Of a stretch of 64,000 bases of DNA, positions 2,177-63,233 are shown piece by piece. Within the stretch, counting starts at the first letter, position 1. The number at the start of each line of letters is the position of its first letter. The notes beneath the pieces are model-generated. The model worked only from the letters and a program-made list of their open reading frames with translations. It made no database searches and was not told the DNA's origin. The translations under genes and the position numbers were made by a program. Location of the stretch: the NCBI GenBank assembly GCA_017528315.1, contig JAFXOW010000010.1:67367-131366 (forward strand). The letters are read 5' to 3'. Source of the stretch: Bacilli bacterium (GTDB lineage Bacteria; Bacillota_I; Bacilli_A; RF39; UBA660).

Positions 2177-4336
2177 ATGAAGAAAGTATTTGAAAAAGAT
2201 TTTTATGGAAAGAAGATTATAGTTGAATTTGGTGAACTTGCTAAACAAGCTAATGGTGCAGTTTTAGTTCGTTTTAATGATACTGTTGTATTATCAACTG
2301 TTTGTTATTCAAGTGAAGCAAACTTATTAAGTGATTTCTTTCCACTTATGGTAATATATCAAGAAAAATTATATTCTGTTGGTAAGATTCCAGGAGGATT
2401 TATTAAAAGAGAAGGTAGACCAACTGAAGCAGCAACGCTTGCAGCTCGTGTTGTTGATAGAACAATGAGACCATTATTCCCAGAAGATTTCAGGAATGAA
2501 GTTCAGGTTGTTAATACCGTTATGTCAGTTGATCCTGATTCACCACCTGAGATGCCTGCGATGTTTGCGTCAAGCTTAGCAACTTCTATTTCTGAGGTTC
2601 CTTTTGATGGGCCAATTGCTGGAGTTAAAGTTGGACGTGTTAATGGAGAATTTATAATTAATCCAACCGTTTCTGAGGCTGATGCTAGTGATATTGATTT
2701 AACAGTAGCTGGAACTATTGATGCTATCAACATGGTTGAAGCTGGTAGTAAACAAGTATCAGAATCTGATATGTTAGATGCTTTAATGTTTGGTCATGAG
2801 GCAATTAAAGAGTTATGTAAGTTTGAGCAAGAAATAATTGCTGAAATAGGCAAAGAAAAAATAGATTATCCTCGTCTTGAAATAAGTGAAGAATTAAGGA
2901 TGAACGTTGATAATCTAATTAGAAATGATTTAGATAAAGCTTTGCGTATTATGGATAAACTTGAAAAATATGCTGCTATTGATAAAGTAAAAAATGATTT
3001 AGTAGAAAAATACAAGGAAGAAAATAGTGAATTAGATGAAAAAGAACTAAATGAATTAGTAGTAAAAGTTCAAAGGATATTTGCTGATATTGAGTATGAT
3101 TTATTTAGAAATATAACAGTTCTTGAGCATACAAGAAGTGATGGAAGAAAGATGGATGAAATAAGACCACTTTCAACTGATATAGATTTACTTCCAAGAA
3201 CTCATGGTAGTGCTTTGTTTACTCGTGGACAAACTCAAAGTTTATCCGTTACAACTTTAGGAGCTCTTGGAGAACATCAAATATTAGATGGATTAGATAT
3301 TGAAACCGAAAAAAGATTTATGTTGCATTACAATTTCCCAGCATTTTCAGTTGGTGAAACAGGAAGATATGGTTCACCTGGACGTCGTGAAATAGGTCAT
3401 GGAGCTTTAGGTGAAAGAGCTCTTGCTCAAGTTATTCCATCTGAAGATGAATTTCCTTATACTATTCGAGTGGTATCTGAAATACTTGAAAGTAATGGTT
3501 CATCAAGTCAAGCATCTATTTGTGCTGGTTGTATGAGTTTAATGGCAGCTGGAGTTCCAATTAAAGCACCAGTTGCAGGTATTGCTATGGGATTAATTAC
3601 AGCGGGAGATGATTATACCATTTTAACGGATATTCAAGGTATGGAAGATCATTTAGGAGATATGGACTTTAAAGTTGCTGGAACAAGAAATGGAATAGTT
3701 GCACTTCAGATGGATATAAAGATTAAAGGTGTAACTAAAGAAATACTTGAAAAAGCTTTAGCTCAAGCTAAAAAAGCTCGTATGGAAATCCTTGATAAAA
3801 TAGAAGAAACAATTAAAGAACCACGTCCTGAAGTATCACAGTATGCACCTAAGACAGTTAGCTTTATGATTGATCCAAATAAGATTAAAGAGGTAATTGG
3901 TAAAGGTGGAGAAATGATTACTAAAATCATTCTTGAAGCTAGTAATGTTACAGCAGTTAATGATGTAAATGCTGTTAAAGTTGATCTTGAAGATGATGGA
4001 CGCGTTATAATTTATCATACTGATAAAGAAATTATAGATAAAACTCGTAAGATGATTGAAGAAGTCATTCGTGAGGCTGAAGTTGGTAAGATTTACAATG
4101 CTAAAGTTGTTAAAATAGAAGACTTTGGTTGTTTTGTTCAAATTTGGCCAGGATGTGAAGGTCTTGTTCATATATCTGCACTTGCTCGTGAACATGTAAA
4201 GAAAGTAGAAGATGTTGTATCACTTGGAGATGAAATATTAGTTAAATGTTTAGGATATGATAAAAAAGGACGTTTAAATTTCTCAAGAAAAGATGCAATA
4301 GAACCAGTTAAAGAAAATAAAAAAGAAGAAAATTAA
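2177..4336 (+). CDS. pnp: polyribonucleotide nucleotidyltransferase (PNPase)
   Basis: 719 aa. Two RNase PH-like domains, KH and S1 domains at C-terminus. Conserved rpsO-pnp synteny. Confidence 0.95.
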
Positions 4337-4349
4337 TTCTTCTTTCCTT

Positions 4350-4425
4350 GCTAAAATAGCTCAGTTGGTAGAGCAATCCTCTCGTAAGGGATAGGCCGCA
4401 GGTTCAAGTCCTGTTTTTAGCACCA
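4350..4425 (+). tRNA. tRNA-Thr (anticodon CGT)
   Basis: Cloverleaf folded by hand: acceptor GCTAAAA/TTTTAGC, D-arm GCTC-AGTTGGTA-GAGC, anticodon stem ATCCT/GGGAT with loop CTCGTAA, T-arm GCAGG-TTCAAGT-CCTGT, encoded CCA. Confidence 0.75.
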
Positions 4426-4460
4426 TAAGTTAATTATTCGAACCATGTTCGAATTATATA

Positions 4461-4496
4461 AAATGCACAATATTTTTGAAATATTGTGCATTTATC
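4461..4496. terminator. bidirectional hairpin terminator (AAATGCACAATATT...AATATTGTGCATTT)
   Basis: 14-bp inverted repeat between tRNA-Thr and the convergent gene 4529-5317. T-runs on both sides. Confidence 0.5.
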
Positions 4497-4528
4497 TTAT
4501 AACTTCCTATTTAATTAATAATAAAAAA

Positions 4529-5317
4529 TTATTGATTTTTAATATTTTTTATTTCATCTTTTTTAGAAGTAATATTATCAGTTTGAATTAAATAGGTTAT
4601 CATTAAAAAAGCATCATCATAGTATTTTTTTAATGTAATATTAGAAAAATTTTTATATTTCTTATCGATTTTATCTATTACACCCATTTTATTAATAATA
4701 AACTTAACTGTATTAAATATAGATGGATTATAAGATTTATATTTATCATAATCTAGGGATAAATAATCATATATTTTATTTAATATAATTCTTTTCATAT
4801 TAATTCCATTATTATTAATACTTGTATAAGAAAGAAGTAGTTCATAAATATCATTGGGAACTAATTCTCTTAAATCTTCATAATTAATATTTTTACTAGA
4901 AATAATTATTTTATCATCTAAATAGAAGGGTTCTAAATTGAAACTCTCTAATATTAAAGGAATATTATGAAAAATAATACTTTGACATAAAGTAGATAAT
5001 TTAGTTTTTTCATAATAAGATTTTATACTTTCCATTAAATATTCCATATTAAGAATAAATTCTAACATATTAATAAAAGCTGACTTAGTTATTTTTTTAC
5101 TTTTTAAATTAACACCAATAAATTCTAAATATGAATAGCAATCTAAAAAGGTATTTCGATATTTCCAATTATTAAATAGATAAGTATTTACATAATCAAA
5201 ATAAGTATATTCTTTTTTATTATAACTAACACATTTAGTATTTAAAACCTTAATTATTTTATTATATTCATCTTTATAAGATGTTTTATTATTTAAATTA
5301 AAAATAGGAGTTCTCAT
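4529..5317 (-). CDS. hypothetical protein (orphan, next to tRNA-Thr)
   Basis: 262-aa ORF, N/K/Y-rich, no recognisable motif. Confidence 0.4.
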   Translation of the reverse strand: MRTPIFNLNNKTSYKDEYNKIIKVLNTKCVSYNKKEYTYFDYVNTYLFNNWKYRNTFLDCYSYLEFIGVNLKSKKITKSAFINMLEFILNMEYLMESIKSYYEKTKLSTLCQSIIFHNIPLILESFNLEPFYLDDKIIISSKNINYEDLRELVPNDIYELLLSYTSINNNGINMKRIILNKIYDYLSLDYDKYKSYNPSIFNTVKFIINKMGVIDKIDKKYKNFSNITLKKYYDDAFLMITYLIQTDNITSKKDEIKNIKNQ

Positions 5318-5507
5318 ATTATCACCTGCATATTTTTTAAAGTTTATTTATTACATATTAATTATATAATATATTTCTTTTTTTTAATAGGATAAATTCA
5401 TTTATTTTACATTATTTAGATAATTATTAAAAATAAAGAAAAATATTAAGAAATGTGGTAAAATAATTTATGAAAAGATATTTATAACATTTAAAAGGAG
5501 AAGTTTT

Positions 5508-5948
5508 ATGGATAATAATTTAAAAAGAGAAATAATTATAGATAATTATGAGAATCCTTTTCATAAGAAAAAGGTAGATAATAAAGATTTTATAAAAGCT
5601 AATACGCATAATGAATCTTGTATAGATAATATAGATTTATTTGTTAAAGTAGAAGATGGAGTTATAGTAGATGCATATTTTGATGGAGAGGCTTGTGCTA
5701 TTACTACCAGTGCCACTAGTATAATGCTAAAAAATATTATAGGTATGAAAGTAGATGATGCTCGGGTATTAATGAAAGAATATTATCATATGATTAATGA
5801 AGAAGAATATGATAGAGATATGCTTAATGAGTTAAATGCTTATTTTGATATAGGAAAACAAGCTAGTCGAATTAAATGTGCAACTTTACCATTTCAAACT
5901 TTAGAAAAAACTATTAAAATTTATGAAGGAGTAGGAAATGAAAAATAG
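5508..5948 (+). CDS. Fe-S cluster assembly scaffold, SufU/NifU-like
   Basis: 146 aa. NifU-N-like pattern (NPxH…ESCIDNIDLFVKVEDGVIVDAYFDGEACAITTSATS…) with three conserved Cys. Confidence 0.6.
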   Translation: MDNNLKREIIIDNYENPFHKKKVDNKDFIKANTHNESCIDNIDLFVKVEDGVIVDAYFDGEACAITTSATSIMLKNIIGMKVDDARVLMKEYYHMINEEEYDRDMLNELNAYFDIGKQASRIKCATLPFQTLEKTIKIYEGVGNEK

Positions 5949-6579
5949 AGATTTATTTAAAACGGAAAATAGTCTAGCTGATAAATATATAAAGAGTTTT
6001 ACATATCCATTTGAAATATTACCACATATTGGGGAAATAATTATGGAAATTGGTAAAACTTTAGGAGATGATTATTATTTGAAGAATGAGAATATTTGGA
6101 TACATAAAAGTATTAAATTACCTGAATATTGTACAATAAATGGTCCTTGTATAATAGATTCTAATGTAGAGATTAGACCATCTGCTTATATAAGAGGTAA
6201 TGTTATTATTGGAAAAAATTCTGTAATAGGAAACTCTTGTGAAATAAAAAATACTATTCTTTATGATAATGTAGAAGTTCCTCATTTTAATTATGTAGGT
6301 GATTCAATTTTAGGATTTAAGAGTCATTTAGGAGCTGGTAGTATTATTTCTAATTTGAAAAGTACTAAAGAGAGTGTTGTAATAGATGAAATGGAGACTA
6401 ATTTAAGAAAAGTTGGAGCTTTTTTAGGAGATTATGTGGAAATTGGATGTAATGCAGTTTTAACACCAGGAACTATTGTTGGATCTAATACCATAATATA
6501 TCCACTTACAATGGTAAGAGGAATAATATCTGAGAATAAAATAGTTAAAAATATGAATAATATAGTAGAGAGGATTTAA
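5938..6579 (+). CDS. hexapeptide-repeat (left-handed beta-helix) acyl/acetyltransferase-like protein, GlmU C-terminal-like
   Basis: 213 aa with repeated [LIV]GxxxxI hexapeptide pattern. Overlaps upstream gene by 11 nt and is immediately followed by glmM. Confidence 0.5.
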   Translation: MKNRDLFKTENSLADKYIKSFTYPFEILPHIGEIIMEIGKTLGDDYYLKNENIWIHKSIKLPEYCTINGPCIIDSNVEIRPSAYIRGNVIIGKNSVIGNSCEIKNTILYDNVEVPHFNYVGDSILGFKSHLGAGSIISNLKSTKESVVIDEMETNLRKVGAFLGDYVEIGCNAVLTPGTIVGSNTIIYPLTMVRGIISENKIVKNMNNIVERI

Positions 6580-36801: not shown

Positions 36802-39702
36802 ATGGATAATATTATAGATAATAAAAAAAGAAGATTTTTTTTGATAATTGGTATTTTATTTTTAATAATTGTTCTTATAGGTTCAGCTTATGCTTTTTTT
36901 AGTTATTCGAGAAATAGTCAAGCTTTTACTTTAACAAGTAATGGAATTACAGCAAGATTTACTAATGGTAGTAATCATATAAATATGCCAAATGCTTTTC
37001 CTGTGAGTGATGAATATGCTATTAGTAATTTAAGTGATTTAAGTTATACTGATTTTACCGTAACAGGTAATGCAGAAAATGAAGATGAAGCGATTACATA
37101 TGAAATATATTTAACAGAAAAAGATGGTAATACTTTAAGTAGTAATTACGTAAAGATATATTTAACAGATAGTAATGGTAATGTTATAGTAGAACCAACT
37201 ATCTATTCAAGTTTAGAAAATACAACTTATCAAAATGATGCAGCAACAGGAAAATTAGTATTAAAGAATACTTTAGATGGAAATTTTACAAAATCATATC
37301 GATTATATGCTTGGATAGATAGTAGTTTTAGTCAGAATGAATCTTTAACCTTTGATTTTTATGTCAATGTATATGCTTATAATGCTTTAGAAAGTGAAGT
37401 AGTTGGTGAATCAAATATTACATTTAATAAGCAAAGCGGAAGTGGAGGGACTAATAGTGTTGAAGCATCTTATAATGATGCTATGCCAACAATAACTTTA
37501 CCAACTAAAAGTGGATATACTTTTGCAGGATACTTTACAGGCGAAAACGGAACTGGTGATCAATATTATAATGCTGATGGTTCAGGAGTTACTGGATGGG
37601 ATAAAACAACTGATACTACTCTTTATGCTAATTGGACAACAGATGAGTATTTAATTGTTTATTATTTAGATGGAGGAACAGTTTCAAGTGCTAATCCGAC
37701 AACTTATAGTATAAATAGTAGTGCTATAACTTTAAATAATCCAACCAAGGTGGGATATATTTTTACTGGATGGAGTGGAACTGACTTAACAGGAAGTGAA
37801 AATACAACTGTAACTATTCCAGCAGGTTCAACAGGAAATAGATATTATACAGCAAATTTTGTACCAATTGGAATGACAGCTTCTGATTTAAAAGATACTT
37901 ATGTAGCTAATTCTTCAAGTGGACTAGTAGCTATAAATAATGATGGAGGATTATATACAGGAACTGGAACAATTAGAGAATATAGATATTCAGGAGTAGA
38001 TAATAGATGGGGAGGAGATGTCAATAACTATATTTGGTTTAATAATGAAATGTGGAGAATTGTTGGAATCTTTAAAGGAGATACCGATGATGGAGCAGAT
38101 GCGTGGAACATAAAAATTATGAGAGATTATTCAATTGGTTCATATAATGGAATAGAAGATGCAATTCAAGTGCCAAGCAGTTATGCAAGTACCGGAGCGG
38201 GAACTAAATCACTAGCATCTGGAGAAATATATTCTGTAACAGCTTCCGGTTCTCGTCCAGCGTTCACTGTTCAAAGAGTACGTTGGAACTCTGGAGGAAC
38301 CAATTCAACTAAAGTATACCCAAGTACATCTGGAATTTTATTATGGTTAAATGAAGCAAGTAATAGTAATTCTTGGTACTATAAGAATTATGATTCATCT
38401 ACGGGAATCAACAAAGAGTATGAAGAATTTATAGCAACAACCACATTTTATACAAGAGCTGGAAATAAAGAGTCAACTGTTGCTGATGAATATAATTTAG
38501 AAAGAATAACAGGAACCATATATAATAGTGAACCGACTTATACTGGAAAAATAGGAATGTTATATCCTAGCGATTATGCTTACGCATCATCTTCAACCAT
38601 TTGGAATGGTACTTCAACAACAATGAATAATTATGATAGTATCGGAGGCTTATCAAGTAATAAACTAAACAACTGGATTTTAAAACCTCATGGTTCAAGT
38701 GAATATTATTGGTTTATTTCTCCTTCATCAGCAAGTGATACTACAGTCCTATGTTGGGAAGGCACTGGTATTGTTGCGAGCTGTGATGCTAGGAATGGAA
38801 TTAATGCTGTACTCAATCTTAAGTCCTCAACATCTATTGTTGCTGGAACAGGAGAATTTTATAACCCTTATATGCTTGAAGAAAATAAATATGTTATTGT
38901 CTACGACTTAAATGGAGGAAGTGTAGCAAGTGCTAATCCAACATATTATACTTCAGAAAGTGGAAGTATAACCTTAAATAATCCAACAAAAGAAGGATAT
39001 ACATTTGTTGGATGGACGGGTTCTAATGGAAATGTTCCTCAAACTACTGTAACTATTCCAAGTGGATCAATTGAAGGTAAACATTATATAGCAAATTGGA
39101 CAGCGAATACTTATACAATAAGTTATACATTAAATGGAGGAAGTGTAGCAAGTGCTAATCCAACTAGTTATACAATAGAGACATCAACATTTAGTCTAAA
39201 TAATCCAATGAAAACTGGTTATAACTTTACAGGATGGAGTGGAACAGATATAAATGGAACTAGTAATAGTGTAAGTATAGCAAAAGGATCAACTGGTAAT
39301 AGAACTTATATGGCTAACTTTACAGTAGATGCTATTGGTAATGTATCATTTACATCGTCAGCTAATCCAATTTATAAAGGTGGATCAACTGCTACAACGA
39401 CTTTAACATATAGTGGAACTGCTAATACAATTGCTTATTCATCAAATAATTCAAGTGTTGCAATTGTAAGTAAAGTTAATAATTCAACAGCTACAATTAC
39501 TGCTGTAAATCCTGGTAGTGCAACAATAACCGTAACGATTACTGATTATGATGGAAATGAAACAACGGAAACAATAAATATAAATGTAATGGTAGACGCT
39601 GAAAATGTAAGTTATACACCTCCTGCTGGAATAACTTGTAATGGCAATACTTGTGATACTGTTCAGCTTATGATTGAAAAATTAGATGAAATGTATGATT
39701 AA
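36802..39702 (+). CDS. large cell-surface protein with Listeria-Bacteroides-type (Flg_new) repeats
   Basis: 966 aa. N-terminal TM/signal. At least four repeats of the …GY(T/I/N)F(T/V)GW(S/T)G…TV(T/S)IP.GS… motif. Precedes the DGR cassette. Confidence 0.6.
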   Translation: MDNIIDNKKRRFFLIIGILFLIIVLIGSAYAFFSYSRNSQAFTLTSNGITARFTNGSNHINMPNAFPVSDEYAISNLSDLSYTDFTVTGNAENEDEAITYEIYLTEKDGNTLSSNYVKIYLTDSNGNVIVEPTIYSSLENTTYQNDAATGKLVLKNTLDGNFTKSYRLYAWIDSSFSQNESLTFDFYVNVYAYNALESEVVGESNITFNKQSGSGGTNSVEASYNDAMPTITLPTKSGYTFAGYFTGENGTGDQYYNADGSGVTGWDKTTDTTLYANWTTDEYLIVYYLDGGTVSSANPTTYSINSSAITLNNPTKVGYIFTGWSGTDLTGSENTTVTIPAGSTGNRYYTANFVPIGMTASDLKDTYVANSSSGLVAINNDGGLYTGTGTIREYRYSGVDNRWGGDVNNYIWFNNEMWRIVGIFKGDTDDGADAWNIKIMRDYSIGSYNGIEDAIQVPSSYASTGAGTKSLASGEIYSVTASGSRPAFTVQRVRWNSGGTNSTKVYPSTSGILLWLNEASNSNSWYYKNYDSSTGINKEYEEFIATTTFYTRAGNKESTVADEYNLERITGTIYNSEPTYTGKIGMLYPSDYAYASSSTIWNGTSTTMNNYDSIGGLSSNKLNNWILKPHGSSEYYWFISPSSASDTTVLCWEGTGIVASCDARNGINAVLNLKSSTSIVAGTGEFYNPYMLEENKYVIVYDLNGGSVASANPTYYTSESGSITLNNPTKEGYTFVGWTGSNGNVPQTTVTIPSGSIEGKHYIANWTANTYTISYTLNGGSVASANPTSYTIETSTFSLNNPMKTGYNFTGWSGTDINGTSNSVSIAKGSTGNRTYMANFTVDAIGNVSFTSSANPIYKGGSTATTTLTYSGTANTIAYSSNNSSVAIVSKVNNSTATITAVNPGSATITVTITDYDGNETTETININVMVDAENVSYTPPAGITCNGNTCDTVQLMIEKLDEMYD

Positions 39703-39715
39703 AATATAAAAAGGA

Positions 39716-40741
39716 TTGAAAAATATGCAGAAAATAAAAAAAATTCTAAAAAGAAATATTAAACTATTAATAACCTTAATATTAGGAATAATTATACCAA
39801 TAATTGGAGTATATGCATCAACCATATATTATAATGGTAATGAAGTAGGATATAGTAATGCTAATTTAACTAAAAATGGTCAAGTAGTAACTAATGTTCA
39901 AGATGCCTTAGATGCCTTGTATAATAAAGCAACAGATCCTTCATATGGTGAAGATGTTTGTACAACTAGTCCTTTTAAGTTAGGAGATTATGTAAGTTAT
40001 ATGCCAACATCAACAAGTTATTCTCCAAATACTTCGTTAAGAGGGGATGCAACAGCAGTAACAATAAATCCAAGTGAGTTGACACTTTGGAGAGTAATAA
40101 AAATAAATCCAAATTGTACAGTAGAAGTAGTATCAGAGTATGTATCAACAAGTACCGTGCAATTTAAGAATAAAACTGGATATTTAAATTATGTGTATGT
40201 ACTAAATGAGATAGCTAAACAGTATGCAGATTCAAGCCATACGTATACACTTGATCCGGCATCAGCCCCAAATGGAGCATTTAGAAATGTAGGATATGAT
40301 GGAGCAACACTTCAAATAACTAATACAACAAGAATAGATAATACGTCACTTGGAGCATCAGGAGGATTATGGTATCAAAAGTCAACTGGATTAAATGGAG
40401 AAGAGAGTTTGGGAGGAGGAGATCAAGGATTTACAACGGATTTAAAATTATTGAGTGATGCAGGAGTAAGTATAGCTGCCTATGCTAAGGGAACAACAAC
40501 GCCAACAGAATATTGGTTAGCTTCGCGCTCCTATACGTGGAACAGTACTACTGATTGGGGATTTGCCGCCCGTAGTGTGCGCTCGTATGGCTACGTTGGT
40601 GGCTACTACCTGTATGACTGGGATGGCAGTAGCTTTACTTCGTACCTCAGCAATAGAGCGGTTCGTCCTGTAATCACTCTAAAGTCTGGACTCACGGTGA
40701 GTGGAGCTGGAACAAGTGCATCACCATATGTGATAAACTAA
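39716..40741 (+). CDS. DGR target protein: membrane-anchored surface protein with C-terminal C-type-lectin-fold variable region
   Basis: 341 aa, N-terminal anchor. 3' 131 nt (40543-40673) matches the downstream template repeat except mainly at template adenines. C-terminus …AVRPVITLKSG… is typical of CLec-fold DGR targets. Confidence 0.75.
   Translation: MKNMQKIKKILKRNIKLLITLILGIIIPIIGVYASTIYYNGNEVGYSNANLTKNGQVVTNVQDALDALYNKATDPSYGEDVCTTSPFKLGDYVSYMPTSTSYSPNTSLRGDATAVTINPSELTLWRVIKINPNCTVEVVSEYVSTSTVQFKNKTGYLNYVYVLNEIAKQYADSSHTYTLDPASAPNGAFRNVGYDGATLQITNTTRIDNTSLGASGGLWYQKSTGLNGEESLGGGDQGFTTDLKLLSDAGVSIAAYAKGTTTPTEYWLASRSYTWNSTTDWGFAARSVRSYGYVGGYYLYDWDGSSFTSYLSNRAVRPVITLKSGLTVSGAGTSASPYVIN
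40543..40673 (+). repeat. DGR variable repeat (VR)
   Basis: Hand alignment to 41610-41740 gives about 109 of 131 identical positions. About 18 of about 22 mismatches are at template adenines. Template AAC (Asn) codons map to Tyr/Asp/Arg/Leu/Ser codons in the variable repeat. Confidence 0.75.
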
Positions 40742-40827: not shown

Positions 40828-41250
40828 ATGGCGAATGTTTTTATGCATAAGACATTAAAAGAAGCATTCTCTGATTATATAATTTTCTTAAAAGTTGGTA
40901 ATTTTTGTGAAGCATATGATAATGATGCTAAAATTATTTCTTATTTATTTAATTATAAATTAAGAAAACTAAATGATACTCTTAATTGTGTCTTTCCTCT
41001 TGTTGCTATAAACAAAGTTTTAAGTGTTTTAGATAGAAAAAGTATTAATTATATAGTTATTGATAAAGCTCATAATTATGAAGAAGAAATAAAACAAAAT
41101 TATAAGAGAAAAAATAAATATGAAGAAACATTAAATGAAGCTTTAAAATATACTGAAAAAATAGATAGAATAGAAAAAATAAAAAATCATTTAATGTTAG
41201 ATGATAAATACCTTCTTGATATAGAAAGACTTTTGTATGAACAAAAGTAA
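40828..41250 (+). CDS. small protein with MutS domain-I-like (mismatch-binding-domain-like) N-terminal region
   Basis: 140 aa. …FLKVGNFCEAYDNDAKIIS…LNCVFPLVAINKVLSVL… parallels MutS domain I (…FYRMGDFYELFYDDAK…IPMAGIPYHA…L..L…). Embedded between the DGR target gene and avd. Confidence 0.4.
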   Translation: MANVFMHKTLKEAFSDYIIFLKVGNFCEAYDNDAKIISYLFNYKLRKLNDTLNCVFPLVAINKVLSVLDRKSINYIVIDKAHNYEEEIKQNYKRKNKYEETLNEALKYTEKIDRIEKIKNHLMLDDKYLLDIERLLYEQK

Positions 41251-41584
41251 GTTTTATATTATTACTTTAGTTGAAAATCTTATTTTAGATTTTGATAAAT
41301 ATTTAACTAATTTCCCTCATATGTATATTGAGTTAAAAAGAGAGATTATGAATACAAGTTATAATATGTTAAGAATTACTCTAGAAGCCAATGAAACGTA
41401 TTCAATAGATAAGAGAATCGATTATCAAGATAAAATTATTGCTAATATTAAGTATTTAGATTTTCTAATTAATTCTTGTTATGATAAGAAAATTATAAAT
41501 AATAAAAGATATTTAAAATTTGGTAGTAATCTAGATTATTTACTTAAATATATTTATGCATGGAGAAATAAGTGTAGGGCATAG
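41237..41584 (+). CDS. avd: DGR accessory variability determinant (Avd)-like small basic helical protein
   Basis: 115 aa, basic. Positioned directly upstream of the template repeat and reverse transcriptase as in canonical DGRs. …FPHMYIELKREIMNTSYNMLRITLEAN… resembles the Avd four-helix-bundle family. Confidence 0.5.
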   Translation: MNKSKFYIITLVENLILDFDKYLTNFPHMYIELKREIMNTSYNMLRITLEANETYSIDKRIDYQDKIIANIKYLDFLINSCYDKKIINNKRYLKFGSNLDYLLKYIYAWRNKCRA

Positions 41585-41609: not shown

Positions 41610-41740
41610 CAGTACCACTGATTGGAAATTTACCGCACGTATTGTGAACTCGAATGGCAACGTTGGTAGCAACAACCTGTATAACTGGTATAGCAGTAGC
41701 TTTACTTCGAACAACAACAATAAAGCGGTCCGTCCTGTAA
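41610..41740 (+). repeat. DGR template repeat (TR), non-coding, AAC-rich
   Basis: Intergenic copy of the 3' end of gene 39716-40741. Lies between avd and the reverse transcriptase. Confidence 0.75.
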
Positions 41741-41867
41741 CTTCTATAAACTTAGGAAATATAATTATTATTATATTTGATAAATATAGAAATAGACTAT
41801 TGTCCTTTCCATTTGGATAAACTAAGAAAAATATATCTGTTAGTAAAATAATGAAAGGGGATATATT

Positions 41868-42821
41868 TTGAAAAAATATAATAATTTATATGATAATATT
41901 TATAAATTAGAAAACATAATATATTGTTTTAATGAAATATGTAAAAATACTAGAAATAAAAAAAGAGTAGCAGAATTTAAATCATTAAAATGTGTTTATA
42001 TAAGTAGAGTATATAATGACCTAAAAAATAAAACGTATGAACCAGGTAAGTTTAATGTATTCTATATATATGATCCTAAAAAAAGAAGAATAGTCAGTCA
42101 AAATATGTATGATAAACTAGTTAATCATTTAGTAAGTAGATATATTTTATATCCTAGTATACTTCCTTGTTTAATAAATGAAAACTGTGCATCACGTCCA
42201 AACAAAGGAGTTAAATATGCCTTAGATTTATATTATAAATATAGAAGAATTTTATATAATAATTATAATAGTTATTATATATTAAAATGTGATATTAAAG
42301 ATTATTTTGGAAGTATTAATATAGATATATTAAAAGAAAAAATAGAAAGAAGGATTAAAGATAAAGATTCTTTACTAATAATTAATAAAATACTTGATAG
42401 TGATAATAAATTATCAATTGGTTTTATGACTAGTCAAATACTTGGTATATTTTATTTAAATGACTTAGACCATTATATTAAAGAAAATTTACATATAAAA
42501 TATTATGTTAGATATCAAGATGACTTTTTATTGATGCATCAAGATAAAGAATATTTAAAATACTGTTTAAATAAAATAAAAGAATTTTTAATTAAAGATG
42601 ACTTAATATTAAATAAGAAAACAAGGATTCATAAAAATACAGATAATTTTATATTTTTAGGTAGAAATAAGTATAATAATTATACTAAATATAGAAATAT
42701 AAAAAGAAAAATTAAATATAAAAAATATTTATATGAAAATAATATTATTAATCTTAATTCTTATATTAGTAGTATTAATTCATATAAAAATTTAATAAAT
42801 AGAAAGGAATTTAAAAAATGA
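41868..42821 (+). CDS. DGR-type reverse transcriptase
   Basis: 317 aa. RT motifs: DIKDYFGSI (motif 3), SIGFMTSQ (DGR-specific [ILV]GxxxSQ in place of QGxxxSP), YVRYQDDFLL (YxDD box). Confidence 0.85.
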   Translation: MKKYNNLYDNIYKLENIIYCFNEICKNTRNKKRVAEFKSLKCVYISRVYNDLKNKTYEPGKFNVFYIYDPKKRRIVSQNMYDKLVNHLVSRYILYPSILPCLINENCASRPNKGVKYALDLYYKYRRILYNNYNSYYILKCDIKDYFGSINIDILKEKIERRIKDKDSLLIINKILDSDNKLSIGFMTSQILGIFYLNDLDHYIKENLHIKYYVRYQDDFLLMHQDKEYLKYCLNKIKEFLIKDDLILNKKTRIHKNTDNFIFLGRNKYNNYTKYRNIKRKIKYKKYLYENNIINLNSYISSINSYKNLINRKEFKK

Positions 42822-43816
42822 AAAAAATAAGATTATTTTTAAAGAATAATTTTAAACTATTAATAGCATTAATAGTAGGAATAGCTATATCAGGAACTTG
42901 TGTATATGCAACTTCAATACAATTTGATAGTAATAAAGTAAGTTTTGATAATACAAGTGCTAATTTAACTAAAAATGGAGTTGCAGTAACTAATGTTCGT
43001 GATGCTATAGATGCTTTGTATGAAAAATCACTTTGTACTAATAATCCTTTTAATATAGGAGATTATGTAAGTTATACACCGACAGCAACAAGTTATGATG
43101 TAACATCAACAGGAGTAAGTGGTGCAACGGGAACCTTAAATCCAAGTGAGTTAAATTTGTGGAGAGTAATAAAAATAAATCCCAATTGTACAGTAGAAGT
43201 AGTATCAGAGTATGTATCAACAACAAATATAACTTTTACAGGTAAGGATGGATATTTAAATTATGTATATATATTAAATGAGATAGCTAAGCAATATGCA
43301 GATGAAAATCATACGTATACACTTGATCCAACAACCGCCCCAGATGGAGCATATAGAAATTTTGGATATGATGGAGCAACACTTCAAATAACCAATACAA
43401 CGAGAATCGATAATACAACACTTGGAGCATCAGGAGGATTATGGTATCAAAAGCCAGTTGGATTAAATGGAGAAGAAAGTTTTGGAGGAGGAGATCAAGG
43501 ATTTACAACGGATTTAAAATTATTGAGTGATGCAGGAGTAAGTATAGCTGCCTATGCCAAGGGAACAACAACGCCAACAGCCTATTGGATTGATTCACGT
43601 ATGTATAAATGGGATGATGCTTCTACGTGGAGCTTTGTTGCACGGCGTATGAATGCTTCTGGACTTCCCGGAGGTGGGAGCCTATATAGTTATAGCAGTA
43701 GTAGTTTTACGTCTTCAAGCGATGGTGGATATGCTGTCCGTCCTGTCGTGACTCTAAAGTCTGGACTCTCAGTAAGTGGTCAGGGTACTAGTGATTCACC
43801 ATATGTTATAAATTAA
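42818..43816 (+). CDS. paralogue of the DGR target protein (secondary or decayed target)
   Basis: 332 aa with the same architecture and about 60-70% identity to 39716-40741. C-terminal VR-like region is diverged at non-adenine positions with indels. No downstream GC hairpin. Confidence 0.6.
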   Translation: MKKIRLFLKNNFKLLIALIVGIAISGTCVYATSIQFDSNKVSFDNTSANLTKNGVAVTNVRDAIDALYEKSLCTNNPFNIGDYVSYTPTATSYDVTSTGVSGATGTLNPSELNLWRVIKINPNCTVEVVSEYVSTTNITFTGKDGYLNYVYILNEIAKQYADENHTYTLDPTTAPDGAYRNFGYDGATLQITNTTRIDNTTLGASGGLWYQKPVGLNGEESFGGGDQGFTTDLKLLSDAGVSIAAYAKGTTTPTAYWIDSRMYKWDDASTWSFVARRMNASGLPGGGSLYSYSSSSFTSSSDGGYAVRPVVTLKSGLSVSGQGTSDSPYVIN

Positions 43817-60293: not shown

Positions 60294-63233
60294 ATGTATA
60301 CTGATTATTCCGAAGAAAAAGAAGAAAATTATTATGCAGATGATGATAATAATAATGGATTTGATAATGAAAAATTAAAAAAAATTGTTTTTTATGTGAT
60401 AATTGGAGTGGTTGGTCTTATTTTAATTATATTGCTTGCTAAAGGATGTACTAAGAAAACTAATCAAGGTCAAAGTAGTCAAAGTACTAGTGATCCAGTT
60501 GTTGTTATTCCATATAAGAGTATGTCATTAGCAGTTGGAGAAACTGATACAATACTTGGAGATGTTTATTTTAATAAAGATGAAAATCCAGTTATTGTGT
60601 GGACATCCGAAAATAGTAATGTTGTTCGTGTATCTGATGATGGTTCAGTTGAAGCAGTTGGTGAAGGATCAACTGATGTTATTGGTAAATATGTTGAAAA
60701 TGGAAAAGAATATACTAGTAAATGTTTAGTAACGGTAACATCAAAAGACATTGTACCTCAAAGTATTTCTTTTGAACAAGAAAAAATAGATATAAGTGCA
60801 GGAGGAAGTTTTTTGCTTCAATATACTGTTACTCCAACGGATGCTAAAGTTCGAGATTTAGTTTATGAAAGTGCTGATAAAGCTATTGCGTTAGTTGACA
60901 ATTCTGGATATATTTATGGTATTTCTGCTGGTACAACAACAATTACTTTAAAAACAAGTGATGAAAATGTTAAAGCAAGTATCACAGTTAATGTTGTTGA
61001 AGCAGAAAATGATGAACCAGTTGTCAATTTAGATCCTGTAAGTTTAAAGATTAGTGGTTTATCAAATGGATTGGCTATTAATAATACAAGTACTATTAAT
61101 TATGAAATTTTACCAACTAATGCAACTAATAGAAAAATTACTTGGGAAAGTAGTAATCCTGAAGTTGCAACGGTTGAGGATGGTGTTGTCAAAGGAATAA
61201 GTGCTGGAACGGCAACGATAATTGCAACAACTGAGAATGGAATATCTGATAAGATAGTTGTAACAGTTGAAACTTCGAGTGTTCCGGTTGAATCAATAAC
61301 TATAGTTGGTGATACTTCTATTACAATTACAAGAGGTGGAACTAAACAACTGGAATTTAATATAACTCCAGAAAATGCTACCAATAAAGAAGTTAAATTT
61401 TCATCAAGCAATACAAATATTGTTTTTGTTACATCAGATGGCATGATGGCGGCTTTAGAACCTGGAAGTTCTGTTGTTACAATTACAACAAAAGATCAAA
61501 ATAAAGTTGCAACAGTTAATGTTACTGTAAAATCGGATGAAGATGGTTCGTCTGGCGGAGATGATTCGTTTGATGGAGGCGATTCGTCTGGTGGAGGTGA
61601 TTCGTCTGGTGGAGGCGATTCGTCAGGAGGAAGTGATTCATCGGATCCAAGCGAAGAAACTTGTACTGCACCTATAGCATCTAATATCTTGAGTATTTCT
61701 CACGATGCTTCAAGTGGAAAAATTTCTACCCAATCTTTTACACTTGCTGCAAGTCAAAAACTATCAGGAAATAATATTAATGTTAAATTAGATAATTTTG
61801 GTTCAGCATGTTTTAAAGATGCAACATATACAGTTAAATATGGAAGTAGTAGTACTAATTTAAAAACAATGTCAAATTTCAATTCGATAAATTTACCTAC
61901 GGAAAGTGGAAGCTCTTTAGTTACTTTAACCTATAAAGGATATTATTTAATAGAAGTTAGTGCTAAATTAAAATCTAATGATACAACCTTAACTAAGTCA
62001 TATTATGCTTACAAATCTACTGGTAGTAGTTGTACAAAAAATTGTACATTAGATAATCCAAGTAGTGGATCAGAAGATGGTTCAAGTAGTGGATCTAGTG
62101 GTGGATCTAGTACTGGTTCAGGAAGTGGTACTGGTGGCGGAACTGGAAGTAGTTTATGTACTTTAGATTCTTTCTCTATTACTTCTAATCAATATTCTTA
62201 TGGTGCACGAACTTCTACTAGCAATTGGTACACAACTGATAGTACGTTCTTCAAAAATAGTAGTCCAGTTCCTGCTTTGACGGTTACTAAATATGATTCA
62301 TGTATAAAAAGTGTAAGTTATAAAGTATATCGTAATTCAACTTCCTCAACTAAAACTCAAACTTTAGTTAGATCAGGTAATAGTTTAAAGAAAAATAGTA
62401 GTATAGAACTTGGAACAACTGATGGTTATTATTATGTGACTGTTACATTTAAAAGTAATAGTGGTAATACTTTTACAAAACAGTATTATGCAGTTGTAAA
62501 AATATCATCTAATAGTTCAACTTCTGGTAATAGTAATAATTATATAAGTATTTTGCCTGCTAATGATACTACAAATGGTCAAACGACGTATGTAATCACT
62601 AAAATACCTTCAACTGTTCAATACGTATATTATTGTACATCAAAGACCAAAAATGACTGTTCACTTAATACAACTACTGGTAAATACAGATTAAGTTTTA
62701 CAAGTGATAATAAACGATTTACAACAATTTCGTATTCTTCTTCATCTAATTCTTCACAAAAAGGTGCCAGAGCATGTTTTAGAGCTTGGAATTCATCAGG
62801 ATGGCTTGGTCAGCCAATTTGTTTAAATGTTCAAAATAAAACCTCTTCATCAACTACTGGTTCAAATTCTTATACAATATCTGTACAAAAAGACTCGGGA
62901 CCAACAACATCTGGTTCATACAGTAAGGGTGATTTAGTAATTACCTGTTCATATAATATAACTGTACCTACGGGTGTTGATCACATAAGACACGCATATT
63001 CATATGTAAGTTACTTAGATTGTTTAAATAAATTAGATAAAAATGGGCAATATGATACTTTTAAAACAATGGATATTAAGAGGTATTCATATATACAAAA
63101 AAATGCCAATAATTCTAAAGTAGTTTATACGTGTTTTACTGGATATAATAAGTCTGGTGAGAAAATTACTAATCGTGTTTATAAGAGTATTATGTATAAC
63201 AGTACTACACTTAAATCGTCTTGTACAAGCTAA
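60294..63233 (+). CDS. large cell-surface protein with multiple Big_2 (bacterial Ig-like) domains, Gly/Ser/Asp-rich linkers and Cys-containing C-terminal domains
   Basis: 979 aa. N-terminal TM anchor. At least four Big_2-like repeats (…KISWESSNPEVATVEDGVVKGISAGTATIIATT…). Low-complexity linkers (SGGGDSS)n and (GS)n. Confidence 0.6.
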   Translation: MYTDYSEEKEENYYADDDNNNGFDNEKLKKIVFYVIIGVVGLILIILLAKGCTKKTNQGQSSQSTSDPVVVIPYKSMSLAVGETDTILGDVYFNKDENPVIVWTSENSNVVRVSDDGSVEAVGEGSTDVIGKYVENGKEYTSKCLVTVTSKDIVPQSISFEQEKIDISAGGSFLLQYTVTPTDAKVRDLVYESADKAIALVDNSGYIYGISAGTTTITLKTSDENVKASITVNVVEAENDEPVVNLDPVSLKISGLSNGLAINNTSTINYEILPTNATNRKITWESSNPEVATVEDGVVKGISAGTATIIATTENGISDKIVVTVETSSVPVESITIVGDTSITITRGGTKQLEFNITPENATNKEVKFSSSNTNIVFVTSDGMMAALEPGSSVVTITTKDQNKVATVNVTVKSDEDGSSGGDDSFDGGDSSGGGDSSGGGDSSGGSDSSDPSEETCTAPIASNILSISHDASSGKISTQSFTLAASQKLSGNNINVKLDNFGSACFKDATYTVKYGSSSTNLKTMSNFNSINLPTESGSSLVTLTYKGYYLIEVSAKLKSNDTTLTKSYYAYKSTGSSCTKNCTLDNPSSGSEDGSSSGSSGGSSTGSGSGTGGGTGSSLCTLDSFSITSNQYSYGARTSTSNWYTTDSTFFKNSSPVPALTVTKYDSCIKSVSYKVYRNSTSSTKTQTLVRSGNSLKKNSSIELGTTDGYYYVTVTFKSNSGNTFTKQYYAVVKISSNSSTSGNSNNYISILPANDTTNGQTTYVITKIPSTVQYVYYCTSKTKNDCSLNTTTGKYRLSFTSDNKRFTTISYSSSSNSSQKGARACFRAWNSSGWLGQPICLNVQNKTSSSTTGSNSYTISVQKDSGPTTSGSYSKGDLVITCSYNITVPTGVDHIRHAYSYVSYLDCLNKLDKNGQYDTFKTMDIKRYSYIQKNANNSKVVYTCFTGYNKSGEKITNRVYKSIMYNSTTLKSSCTS

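Follow-up and report, generated by a model that had tools for sequence, protein, structure and literature searches.

A MutS domain I protein of the MSL class encoded in a diversity-generating retroelement of an uncultured Bacilli bacterium

The stretch of DNA analysed here (64,000 nucleotides of the contig JAFXOW010000010.1, hereafter the window) comes from an uncultured low-GC Bacilli bacterium and carries a chromosomal diversity-generating retroelement (DGR). One small gene inside the cassette of this element, msl, is almost certainly an accessory gene of the class known as MSL or Msl ('MutS-like'). Its product, Msl, is recognized from its sequence and its modelled fold as a stand-alone MutS domain I, which keeps the mismatch-contact motif Phe-X-Glu and is predicted to bind mismatched DNA. 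The gene is located as follows:

40828–41250, + strand: msl (MutS-like DGR accessory gene), ATG start, 140 aa, residues ~1–95 corresponding to MutS domain I

An initial annotation of the window, made from the letters alone, had reported a 140-aa open reading frame (ORF) with this peptide sequence at this position, between the DGR target gene and avd (accessory variability determinant), and this placement was confirmed. A ribosome-binding site (GAAGGG) is present ~8 nt upstream of the start codon, and no overlapping ORF of at least 40 aa was found on the opposite strand across msl. The protein is identical to GenBank entry MBR3660679.1 (IKN63_02115), a 'hypothetical protein' from a metagenome-assembled genome (MAG) deposited as 'Bacilli bacterium'.

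The initial annotation had also noticed, by eye, a likeness to MutS domain I, and had proposed a profile search and a structure prediction followed by a fold search as checks. The Pfam family MutS_I (PF01624) matched residues 8–70 of Msl with an E-value of 7.7e-7 and 29.8 bits, above the gathering cut-off of 20.6. Msl lacks the connector, lever, clamp and ABC ATPase domains and is not a full-length MutS/MSH ATPase: no MutS_II to MutS_V match was obtained in the Pfam scan of the 140-aa protein, and the NCBIfam equivalogs for full-length MutS gave only 16.2 and 12.9 bits, where the cut-offs are 480 and 642, in agreement with the earlier statement that none of the rest of MutS is present.

Searches based on the sequence of Msl were less productive. 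Using Msl as a single sequence, phmmer gave no match among the PDB sequences. An alignment of 21 homologues (A2), on which the family profile and the AlphaFold2 model were based, reached the MutS protein of Taq weakly (E 0.027), with residues 9–37 of Msl on Taq residues 22–50. The Phe-X-Glu motif that contacts the mismatch comprises F36 and E38 in E. coli MutS and F39 and E41 in Taq MutS, and in the A2 profile alignment F26-C27-E28 of Msl fell on F39-Y-E41 of the latter. Comparison by hhalign with the N-terminus of E. coli MutS gave 87% probability in the same register, with GNFCE on GDFYE. The AlphaFold2 model obtained with A2 was confident (mean pLDDT 91.1, pTM 0.82) and consists of an alpha/beta domain (residues 2–90) and two long helices (residues 98–124 and 126–137). 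When this model was compared with the PDB using Foldseek, the best 50 matches were all chains of MutS, MutS-alpha or MutS-beta (best E 1.6e-5). The fold search thus gave the decisive answer, the PDB sequence searches having been empty or weak. Hence, the likeness seen by eye is supported by the Pfam profile, the fold search and the Phe-X-Glu motif alike. The C-terminal 45 residues have no counterpart in MutS and form a hairpin of two helices (residues 98–137). The calculated isoelectric point (pI) is 8.36 for the whole protein, 9.1 for the basic N-terminal domain and 5.3 for the acidic C-terminal helices.

In MutS, the Phe of this motif stacks on the mismatched base, and the Glu aids discrimination and signalling to the ATPase. 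Conservation was counted in 112 near-full-length members of the Msl family. Residues conserved in at least 80% of them were G24, F26, D33, Y43, F56, P57, K63, Y75, N96 and Y98. F26, which lies in a conserved G-x-F-Y motif, was present in 104 of 106 ungapped sequences. The Glu position is kept in the window Msl and in the close relatives that form A2, and it varies across the family (E 22, H 21, N 15, K 15, Y 10, R 9). According to their titles, PDB entries 1wbb, 1wbd and 1wb9 contain E. coli MutS E38A, E38Q and E38T, each bound to a G.T mismatch. These mutants still crystallise on the mismatch. A pattern in which the Phe is kept and the Glu is free is in line with a requirement for stacking by the Phe and not for the Glu, as would be expected if a protein had to bind a mismatch and had no ATPase to signal to.

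The cassette that contains msl comprises the following elements:

39716–40741, + strand: DGR target (variable protein) gene 1, encoding 341 aa; membrane or signal segment at the N-terminus, variable repeat (VR) in the last ~65 codons
40543–40690, + strand: variable repeat VR1, forming direct repeat family D2 with the template repeat (TR), 80% identity
40767–40790, no strand: GC-rich inverted repeat (GTGGACGCCC..GGACGTCCAC), just downstream of VR1
41237–41584, + strand: avd, 115 aa, pI 9.2
41610–41757, + strand: TR, between avd and the reverse transcriptase (RT) gene, with 42 adenines in 41610–41745
41868–42821, + strand: DGR RT, 317 aa, Pfam RVT_1 E 1.7e-13, with IGFMTSQ and YQDD motifs
42818–43816, + strand: second target-family paralogue, 332 aa, with a VR-like region at about 43620–43765

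This locus is a complete DGR, with an RT, avd and an adenine-biased TR/VR pair at the 3' end of a target gene. The TR core (41610–41740) and VR1 differ by 22 mismatches, and 18 of the 22 are located at TR adenines. The product of avd matched Pfam bAvd (E 2.7e-4), NCBIfam DivGenRetAVD (E 2e-5) and PHROG 3206, 'Avd protein of DGR' (E 5.3e-9), and no HRDC match was found among the cassette ORFs scanned (Pfam, E ≤ 1). The GC content of VR1 is 51%, compared with 27% for the window. The inverted repeat that follows it folds with -17 kcal/mol (z -2.9) into a 10-pair stem with 7 G-C pairs, and is placed like the hairpin/cruciform of DGR targets; such a role is suggested by its position only. The VR-like region of the second paralogue (VR2) is degenerate, with many non-adenine differences from the TR and a 3-nt indel, and, unlike VR1, it has no GC hairpin downstream. 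These features suggest that the second paralogue is probably no longer diversified, being a retired or decaying DGR target.

In the window, avd has its ATG within msl, so that the two genes share 14 nt, and an overlap of 8–29 nt between the two genes was found in all six cassettes with the msl-avd order. Since the overlap occurs in all six, msl is probably translationally coupled to avd. The acidic tail of Msl and the basic Avd (pI 5.3 versus 9.2) are perhaps joined in a complex.

A first homology search gave 21 proteins of 122–162 aa, nearly all with a precomputed PF01624 match, and an exhaustive profile search gave 1,221 cluster representatives at E ≤ 1e-3, of which 391 were at E ≤ 1e-10. 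The sizes of the family members ranged from 67 to 187 aa in all 150 among the matches listed. The order target-msl-avd-TR-RT is kept in the related loci L001, L002 and L005–L007, and homologues of target gene 1 with 50% identity occupy the same position in L005–L007. Identity to the window Msl, Avd and RT is, respectively, 61, 88 and 79% in L005, 51, 68 and 71% in L002, and 52, 70 and 69% in L001, so that the RTs of these loci are 69–79% identical to that of the window. Mismatches between TR and VR are adenine-specific in other msl cassettes as well (19 of 20 in L005 and 19 of 25 in L002). Distant members with 24–42% identity, located on longer contigs, adjoin avd and/or an RVT_1 gene in eight out of eight cases, in at least three gene orders:

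L016–L018: avd-RT-target-target-small ORF-msl
L019: msl-small ORF-RT
L020 and L023: msl-avd-RT
L021: msl-avd, then the contig end
L022: msl-avd on one strand, RT and a further MutS_I gene on the other

The linkage of msl to DGR cassettes holds in 12 other complete loci, across MAGs of Bacilli and Clostridia. A survey of related DGR loci had been suggested by the initial annotation as a further check, and it shows that the ORF is conserved in related and in distant cassettes, including those with 24% identity. The sole copy without a DGR partner is a fragment (residues 50–125) in L003. This locus (2727–6234), from the same MAG as L001 (Bacillales bacterium UBA7476), contains three tandem paralogues of the target family followed by the msl fragment, and neither avd nor RT was found beside the fragment. 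L003 has the appearance of a second, degraded DGR locus, the genome also having an intact one.

Outside these MAGs, no match to Msl was obtained by tblastn in 50,697 phage genomes, no family matching Msl was found in PHROGs, and the search of viral and metagenome contigs with A2 returned mostly unrelated MutS_I proteins or short contigs. Two of the distant gene arrangements have features of their own. In the Clostridia MAG contig JBJFFF010000130.1 (L022, 328–2811), msl (328–774, + strand) and avd (746–1087, + strand) face an RT gene (1461–2405, - strand) and a second MutS_I gene encoding 134 aa (2407–2811, - strand); the two MutS_I genes could belong to two head-to-head elements or represent a duplicated accessory gene. 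A conserved small ORF of 68–86 aa is located immediately upstream of msl in L016 (4442–4702), L017 (4752–4997) and L018 (4718–4924). It has no Pfam match and may be a further accessory gene.

The initial annotation did not recognize this ORF as a described DGR component. This was incorrect, since Wu et al. (2018, NAR, PMC5758913) had distinguished four classes of DGR accessory genes: avd, HRDC, MSL and CH1. Of 372 DGRs, 16 had an MSL gene ('Architecture D'), in each case accompanied by avd and not by HRDC, and the members of the class had 112–283 aa and a near-neutral pI of 7.2 ± 1.7; in addition, three DGR RTs bore a weak C-terminal MutS_I motif (PMC5758913). Msl was also reported by Macadangdang et al. 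in three Bacteroides DGRs, Bfr, Bth and Bun (bioRxiv 10.1101/2024.11.15.621889). The window Msl resembles the published class in its size (140 aa), its MutS_I homology, its location inside a DGR cassette, the presence of avd and the absence of HRDC, and its pI (8.36) is within one standard deviation of the class value. It differs in coming from the MAG of an uncultured low-GC Bacilli, where it is annotated only as a 'hypothetical protein'. The window Msl belongs to the MSL class by these features, an assignment that rests on the shared MutS_I homology and on context, the published MSLs having been compared by description. It is a well-supported additional example of an already described class, and not a categorically new protein. 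The near-invariant Phe with a variable Glu, the msl-avd overlap of 8–29 nt and the acidic helical C-terminal hairpin were not found in the published accounts of MSL/Msl; the Phe/Glu pattern and the overlap are, in a modest sense, new details.

A divergent cassette was observed in a Bacilli MAG from the Hadza gut (L004, CAKOLK010000007.1, 2826–7742), with an 894-aa target, a 124-aa Msl-like gene and a 369-aa RT. The Msl-like protein has F-I-N in place of F-x-E and reaches 20.0 bits with Pfam MutS_I, just below the cut-off. No avd was detectable in this locus by tblastn or Pfam; if it is truly without avd, L004 departs from the published observation that avd accompanies every MSL gene. A 97-aa ORF located after the RT of L004 was considered as a second Msl and rejected, as it had no Pfam support.

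We infer, tentatively and at somewhat less than an even chance, that Msl binds at mismatches in the cDNA:VR heteroduplex but does not license their repair, and in this way shields the heteroduplex from host MutS. During mutagenic retrohoming, the adenine-mutagenised cDNA would pair with the parental VR and form a mismatch-dense heteroduplex, which host MutS/MutL could revert to the parental sequence in an all-or-nothing manner. Msl would probably be delivered with the Avd-RT-cDNA complex, and its conserved Phe would be inserted at the mismatches of the heteroduplex. The occupied sites would not be licensed for repair, because the MutL-recruiting connector, clamp and ATPase domains are absent from Msl. 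The new VR would remain shielded until replication fixes the new sequence, and Msl would thus be the natural counterpart of the dominant-negative MutL added to DGR and recombineering systems.

This shielding role is supported by the constraint on the Phe/Glu pair, the linkage to DGRs, the coupling of msl to avd and the literature on mutS deletion. Deletion of the host mutS gene in Bacteroides increased retrohoming 5- to 10-fold with no change in the mutation pattern, a result that was read by the authors as all-or-nothing repair of the heteroduplex (bioRxiv 10.1101/2024.11.15.621889). A 2026 preprint justified the use of dominant-negative MutL in an E. coli DGR system by the 'many MutS-like homologs' that DGRs contain, and another group deleted mutS for the same purpose in an engineered E. 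coli DGR. The initial annotation had suggested that the protein protects or channels mismatched cDNA:DNA heteroduplexes, which is a reasonable proposal and agrees with the lowering of retrohoming by host MutS in Bacteroides. No functional study of Msl was found in the searchable literature on Msl and mutagenic retrohoming. Worded as a whole, the proposal, to which we give slightly less confidence than to the shielding itself, is that Msl is a retroelement-encoded anti-mismatch-repair decoy that is loaded by Avd onto the cDNA:VR heteroduplex and blocks host MutS/MutL from erasing the new diversity. Retention of the Phe together with a dispensable Glu would then mark a protein of the type 'bind but do not signal'.

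Several points weigh against the shielding role. Stable DNA binding by MutS also needs the clamp domains and a dimer, and an isolated domain I may bind weakly without a partner. The PF01624 match to Msl spans profile positions 8–75 of 113 only. Between related cassettes, Avd and RT are better conserved than Msl (identities given above), which could reflect a weaker constraint on Msl or its adaptation to a host partner. No MutS was found in the 64-kb window, in which the ten largest other ORFs were scanned. MutS was reported not to be required for retrohoming in the Bordetella phage (PMC5758913). Finally, the three Msl-encoding DGRs of Bacteroides are quiescent and two DGRs without Msl are constitutively active, although the authors attributed the quiescence to transcription (bioRxiv 10.1101/2024.11.15.621889); this pattern does not support a simple model in which Msl boosts retrohoming.

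Among the other explanations, the one that survives best, although we regard it as unlikely, is that Msl acts as a targeting or integration factor at distorted target DNA, where it would tether or stabilise the Avd-RT-cDNA complex. Candidate sites for this activity are the GC hairpin/cruciform downstream of VR, the IMH/IMH* junction (IMH, initiation of mutagenic homing) and the first mismatches of the annealed cDNA. However, homing is efficient in the absence of Msl in most DGRs, among them the Bordetella phage model and the Bacteroides elements with constitutive activity, so that Msl would not be a core targeting factor, and the second gene architecture puts msl far from avd, after the target genes.

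Clearly less probable is a role of Msl as a brake or quality filter, which would bind mismatched intermediates or host repair proteins, reduce or gate retrohoming in this way, and contribute to the quiescence of the element. The Bacteroides data could be read in this way, as Bfr, Bth and Bun were quiescent in the laboratory and the Msl-less Bov and Bfi were constitutively active, but the quiescence is confounded by low transcription, and homologues of those DGRs are active in mothers and infants. In addition, the abundant adenine-specific VR divergence of Msl-bearing cassettes (window, L005 and L002) argues against a brake, and it would be an odd design for a brake to be placed in the same operon as avd and translationally coupled to it.

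We give an equally low probability to the poisoning of host repair by protein contacts, for instance by docking of Msl on MutS in place of domain I or by sequestering a repair factor. A truncated host repair protein is a common design of dominant-negative inhibitors, Msl evolves faster than Avd and RT, as would be the case for a protein tracking a host partner, and the Glu position is not conserved. Against this, conservation is highest at the DNA-intercalating Phe of the G-x-F-Y motif, which points to contact with DNA, and domain I of MutS is neither its dimerisation surface nor its MutL-binding surface.

The last explanation, a chance reading frame or a decaying mutS fragment with no role in the DGR, has a negligible probability: AT-rich genomes (27% GC) do yield many spurious ORFs, the GenBank label is 'hypothetical protein' and the truncated L003 copy lacks avd and RT, but it is ruled out by the conservation data, that is, the 1,221 cluster representatives at E ≤ 1e-3 with conserved core residues and the position in DGR cassettes kept in MAGs of both Bacilli and Clostridia at identities as low as 24%, together with the confident fold and the good ribosome-binding site.

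Msl can be compared with known systems in which mismatch repair is avoided or in which domain I occurs. With respect to domain I of MutS, MSH6 and MSH3 (PF01624), Msl is devoid of domains II–V and of the dimerisation helix-turn-helix and, unlike MutS/MSH, carries an unrelated helical hairpin of 45 residues. Because those parts are absent, Msl could not clamp DNA, hydrolyse ATP or recruit MutL. By analogy, its effect would resemble that of dominant-negative MutL (E32K) or of mutS deletion in oligo recombineering and E. coli DGRs, where repair is suppressed, locally or globally, so that a heteroduplex of ssDNA or cDNA with the chromosome survives despite its multiple mismatches. However, those interventions are engineered and either hit MutL or remove MutS, whereas Msl is a natural, element-encoded fragment of MutS.

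Phage contigs of IMG/VR encode a stand-alone MutS_I protein of 127 aa (Pfam E 1e-29) and fusions of ~392 aa with ParB_N, HTH_ParB and MutS_I (MutS_I E 2e-23), in these loci:

L009, 4977–5360: phage MutS_I locus
L011, 24–1052: phage MutS_I locus
L012, 3362–4543: phage MutS_I locus
L013, 4119–5297: phage MutS_I locus

Similar small phage proteins are present in BFVD, e.g. 'MutS domain I [Myoviridae sp. ctsK93]'. Like Msl, the phage proteins and fusions carry only domain I of MutS, outside the repair ATPase; unlike Msl, they match canonical MutS_I much more strongly and do not show the C-terminal hairpin pattern. No DGR RT was found near the phage loci by tblastn with the window RT. The phage proteins are probably separate acquisitions, and may constitute an independent class of mismatch-binding or anti-repair proteins.

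For the survival of DGR cDNA against host mismatch repair, when it is written into its target, a natural MutS fragment encoded by the DGR is an obvious candidate for a built-in solution, because host MutS lowers Bacteroides retrohoming and engineered DGRs need repair to be turned off. The locus described here and its relatives add a structural model, a set of constrained residues (Phe kept, Glu free) and a conserved msl-avd overlap, which make the hypothesis directly testable. They are of value as a well-characterised case from which testable predictions can be drawn. If the decoy proposal were true, Msl would be the first example of a natural factor by which a DGR evades repair, and a ready-made, locally acting replacement for MutL-E32K in genome-writing tools based on DGRs or retrons, and the phage proteins consisting of MutS_I only might represent a wider class of such decoys.

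The chromosomal location of the DGR is indicated by its neighbours, with genes for PNPase, GlmM, a Mur ligase and Der upstream and the ribosomal protein L3 gene (46536–47327) downstream. A promoter scan was not informative at a GC content of 27%, as it gave 46 sites compared with 39.6 expected. Directly upstream of the DGR target, at 36802–39702, there is a gene for a 966-aa protein with Listeria-Bacteroides repeats (Flg_new) and Big_2, and a 979-aa protein with Big_2 repeats is encoded further downstream, at 60294–63233. The DGR is thus located among genes for large predicted surface proteins that flank the region.
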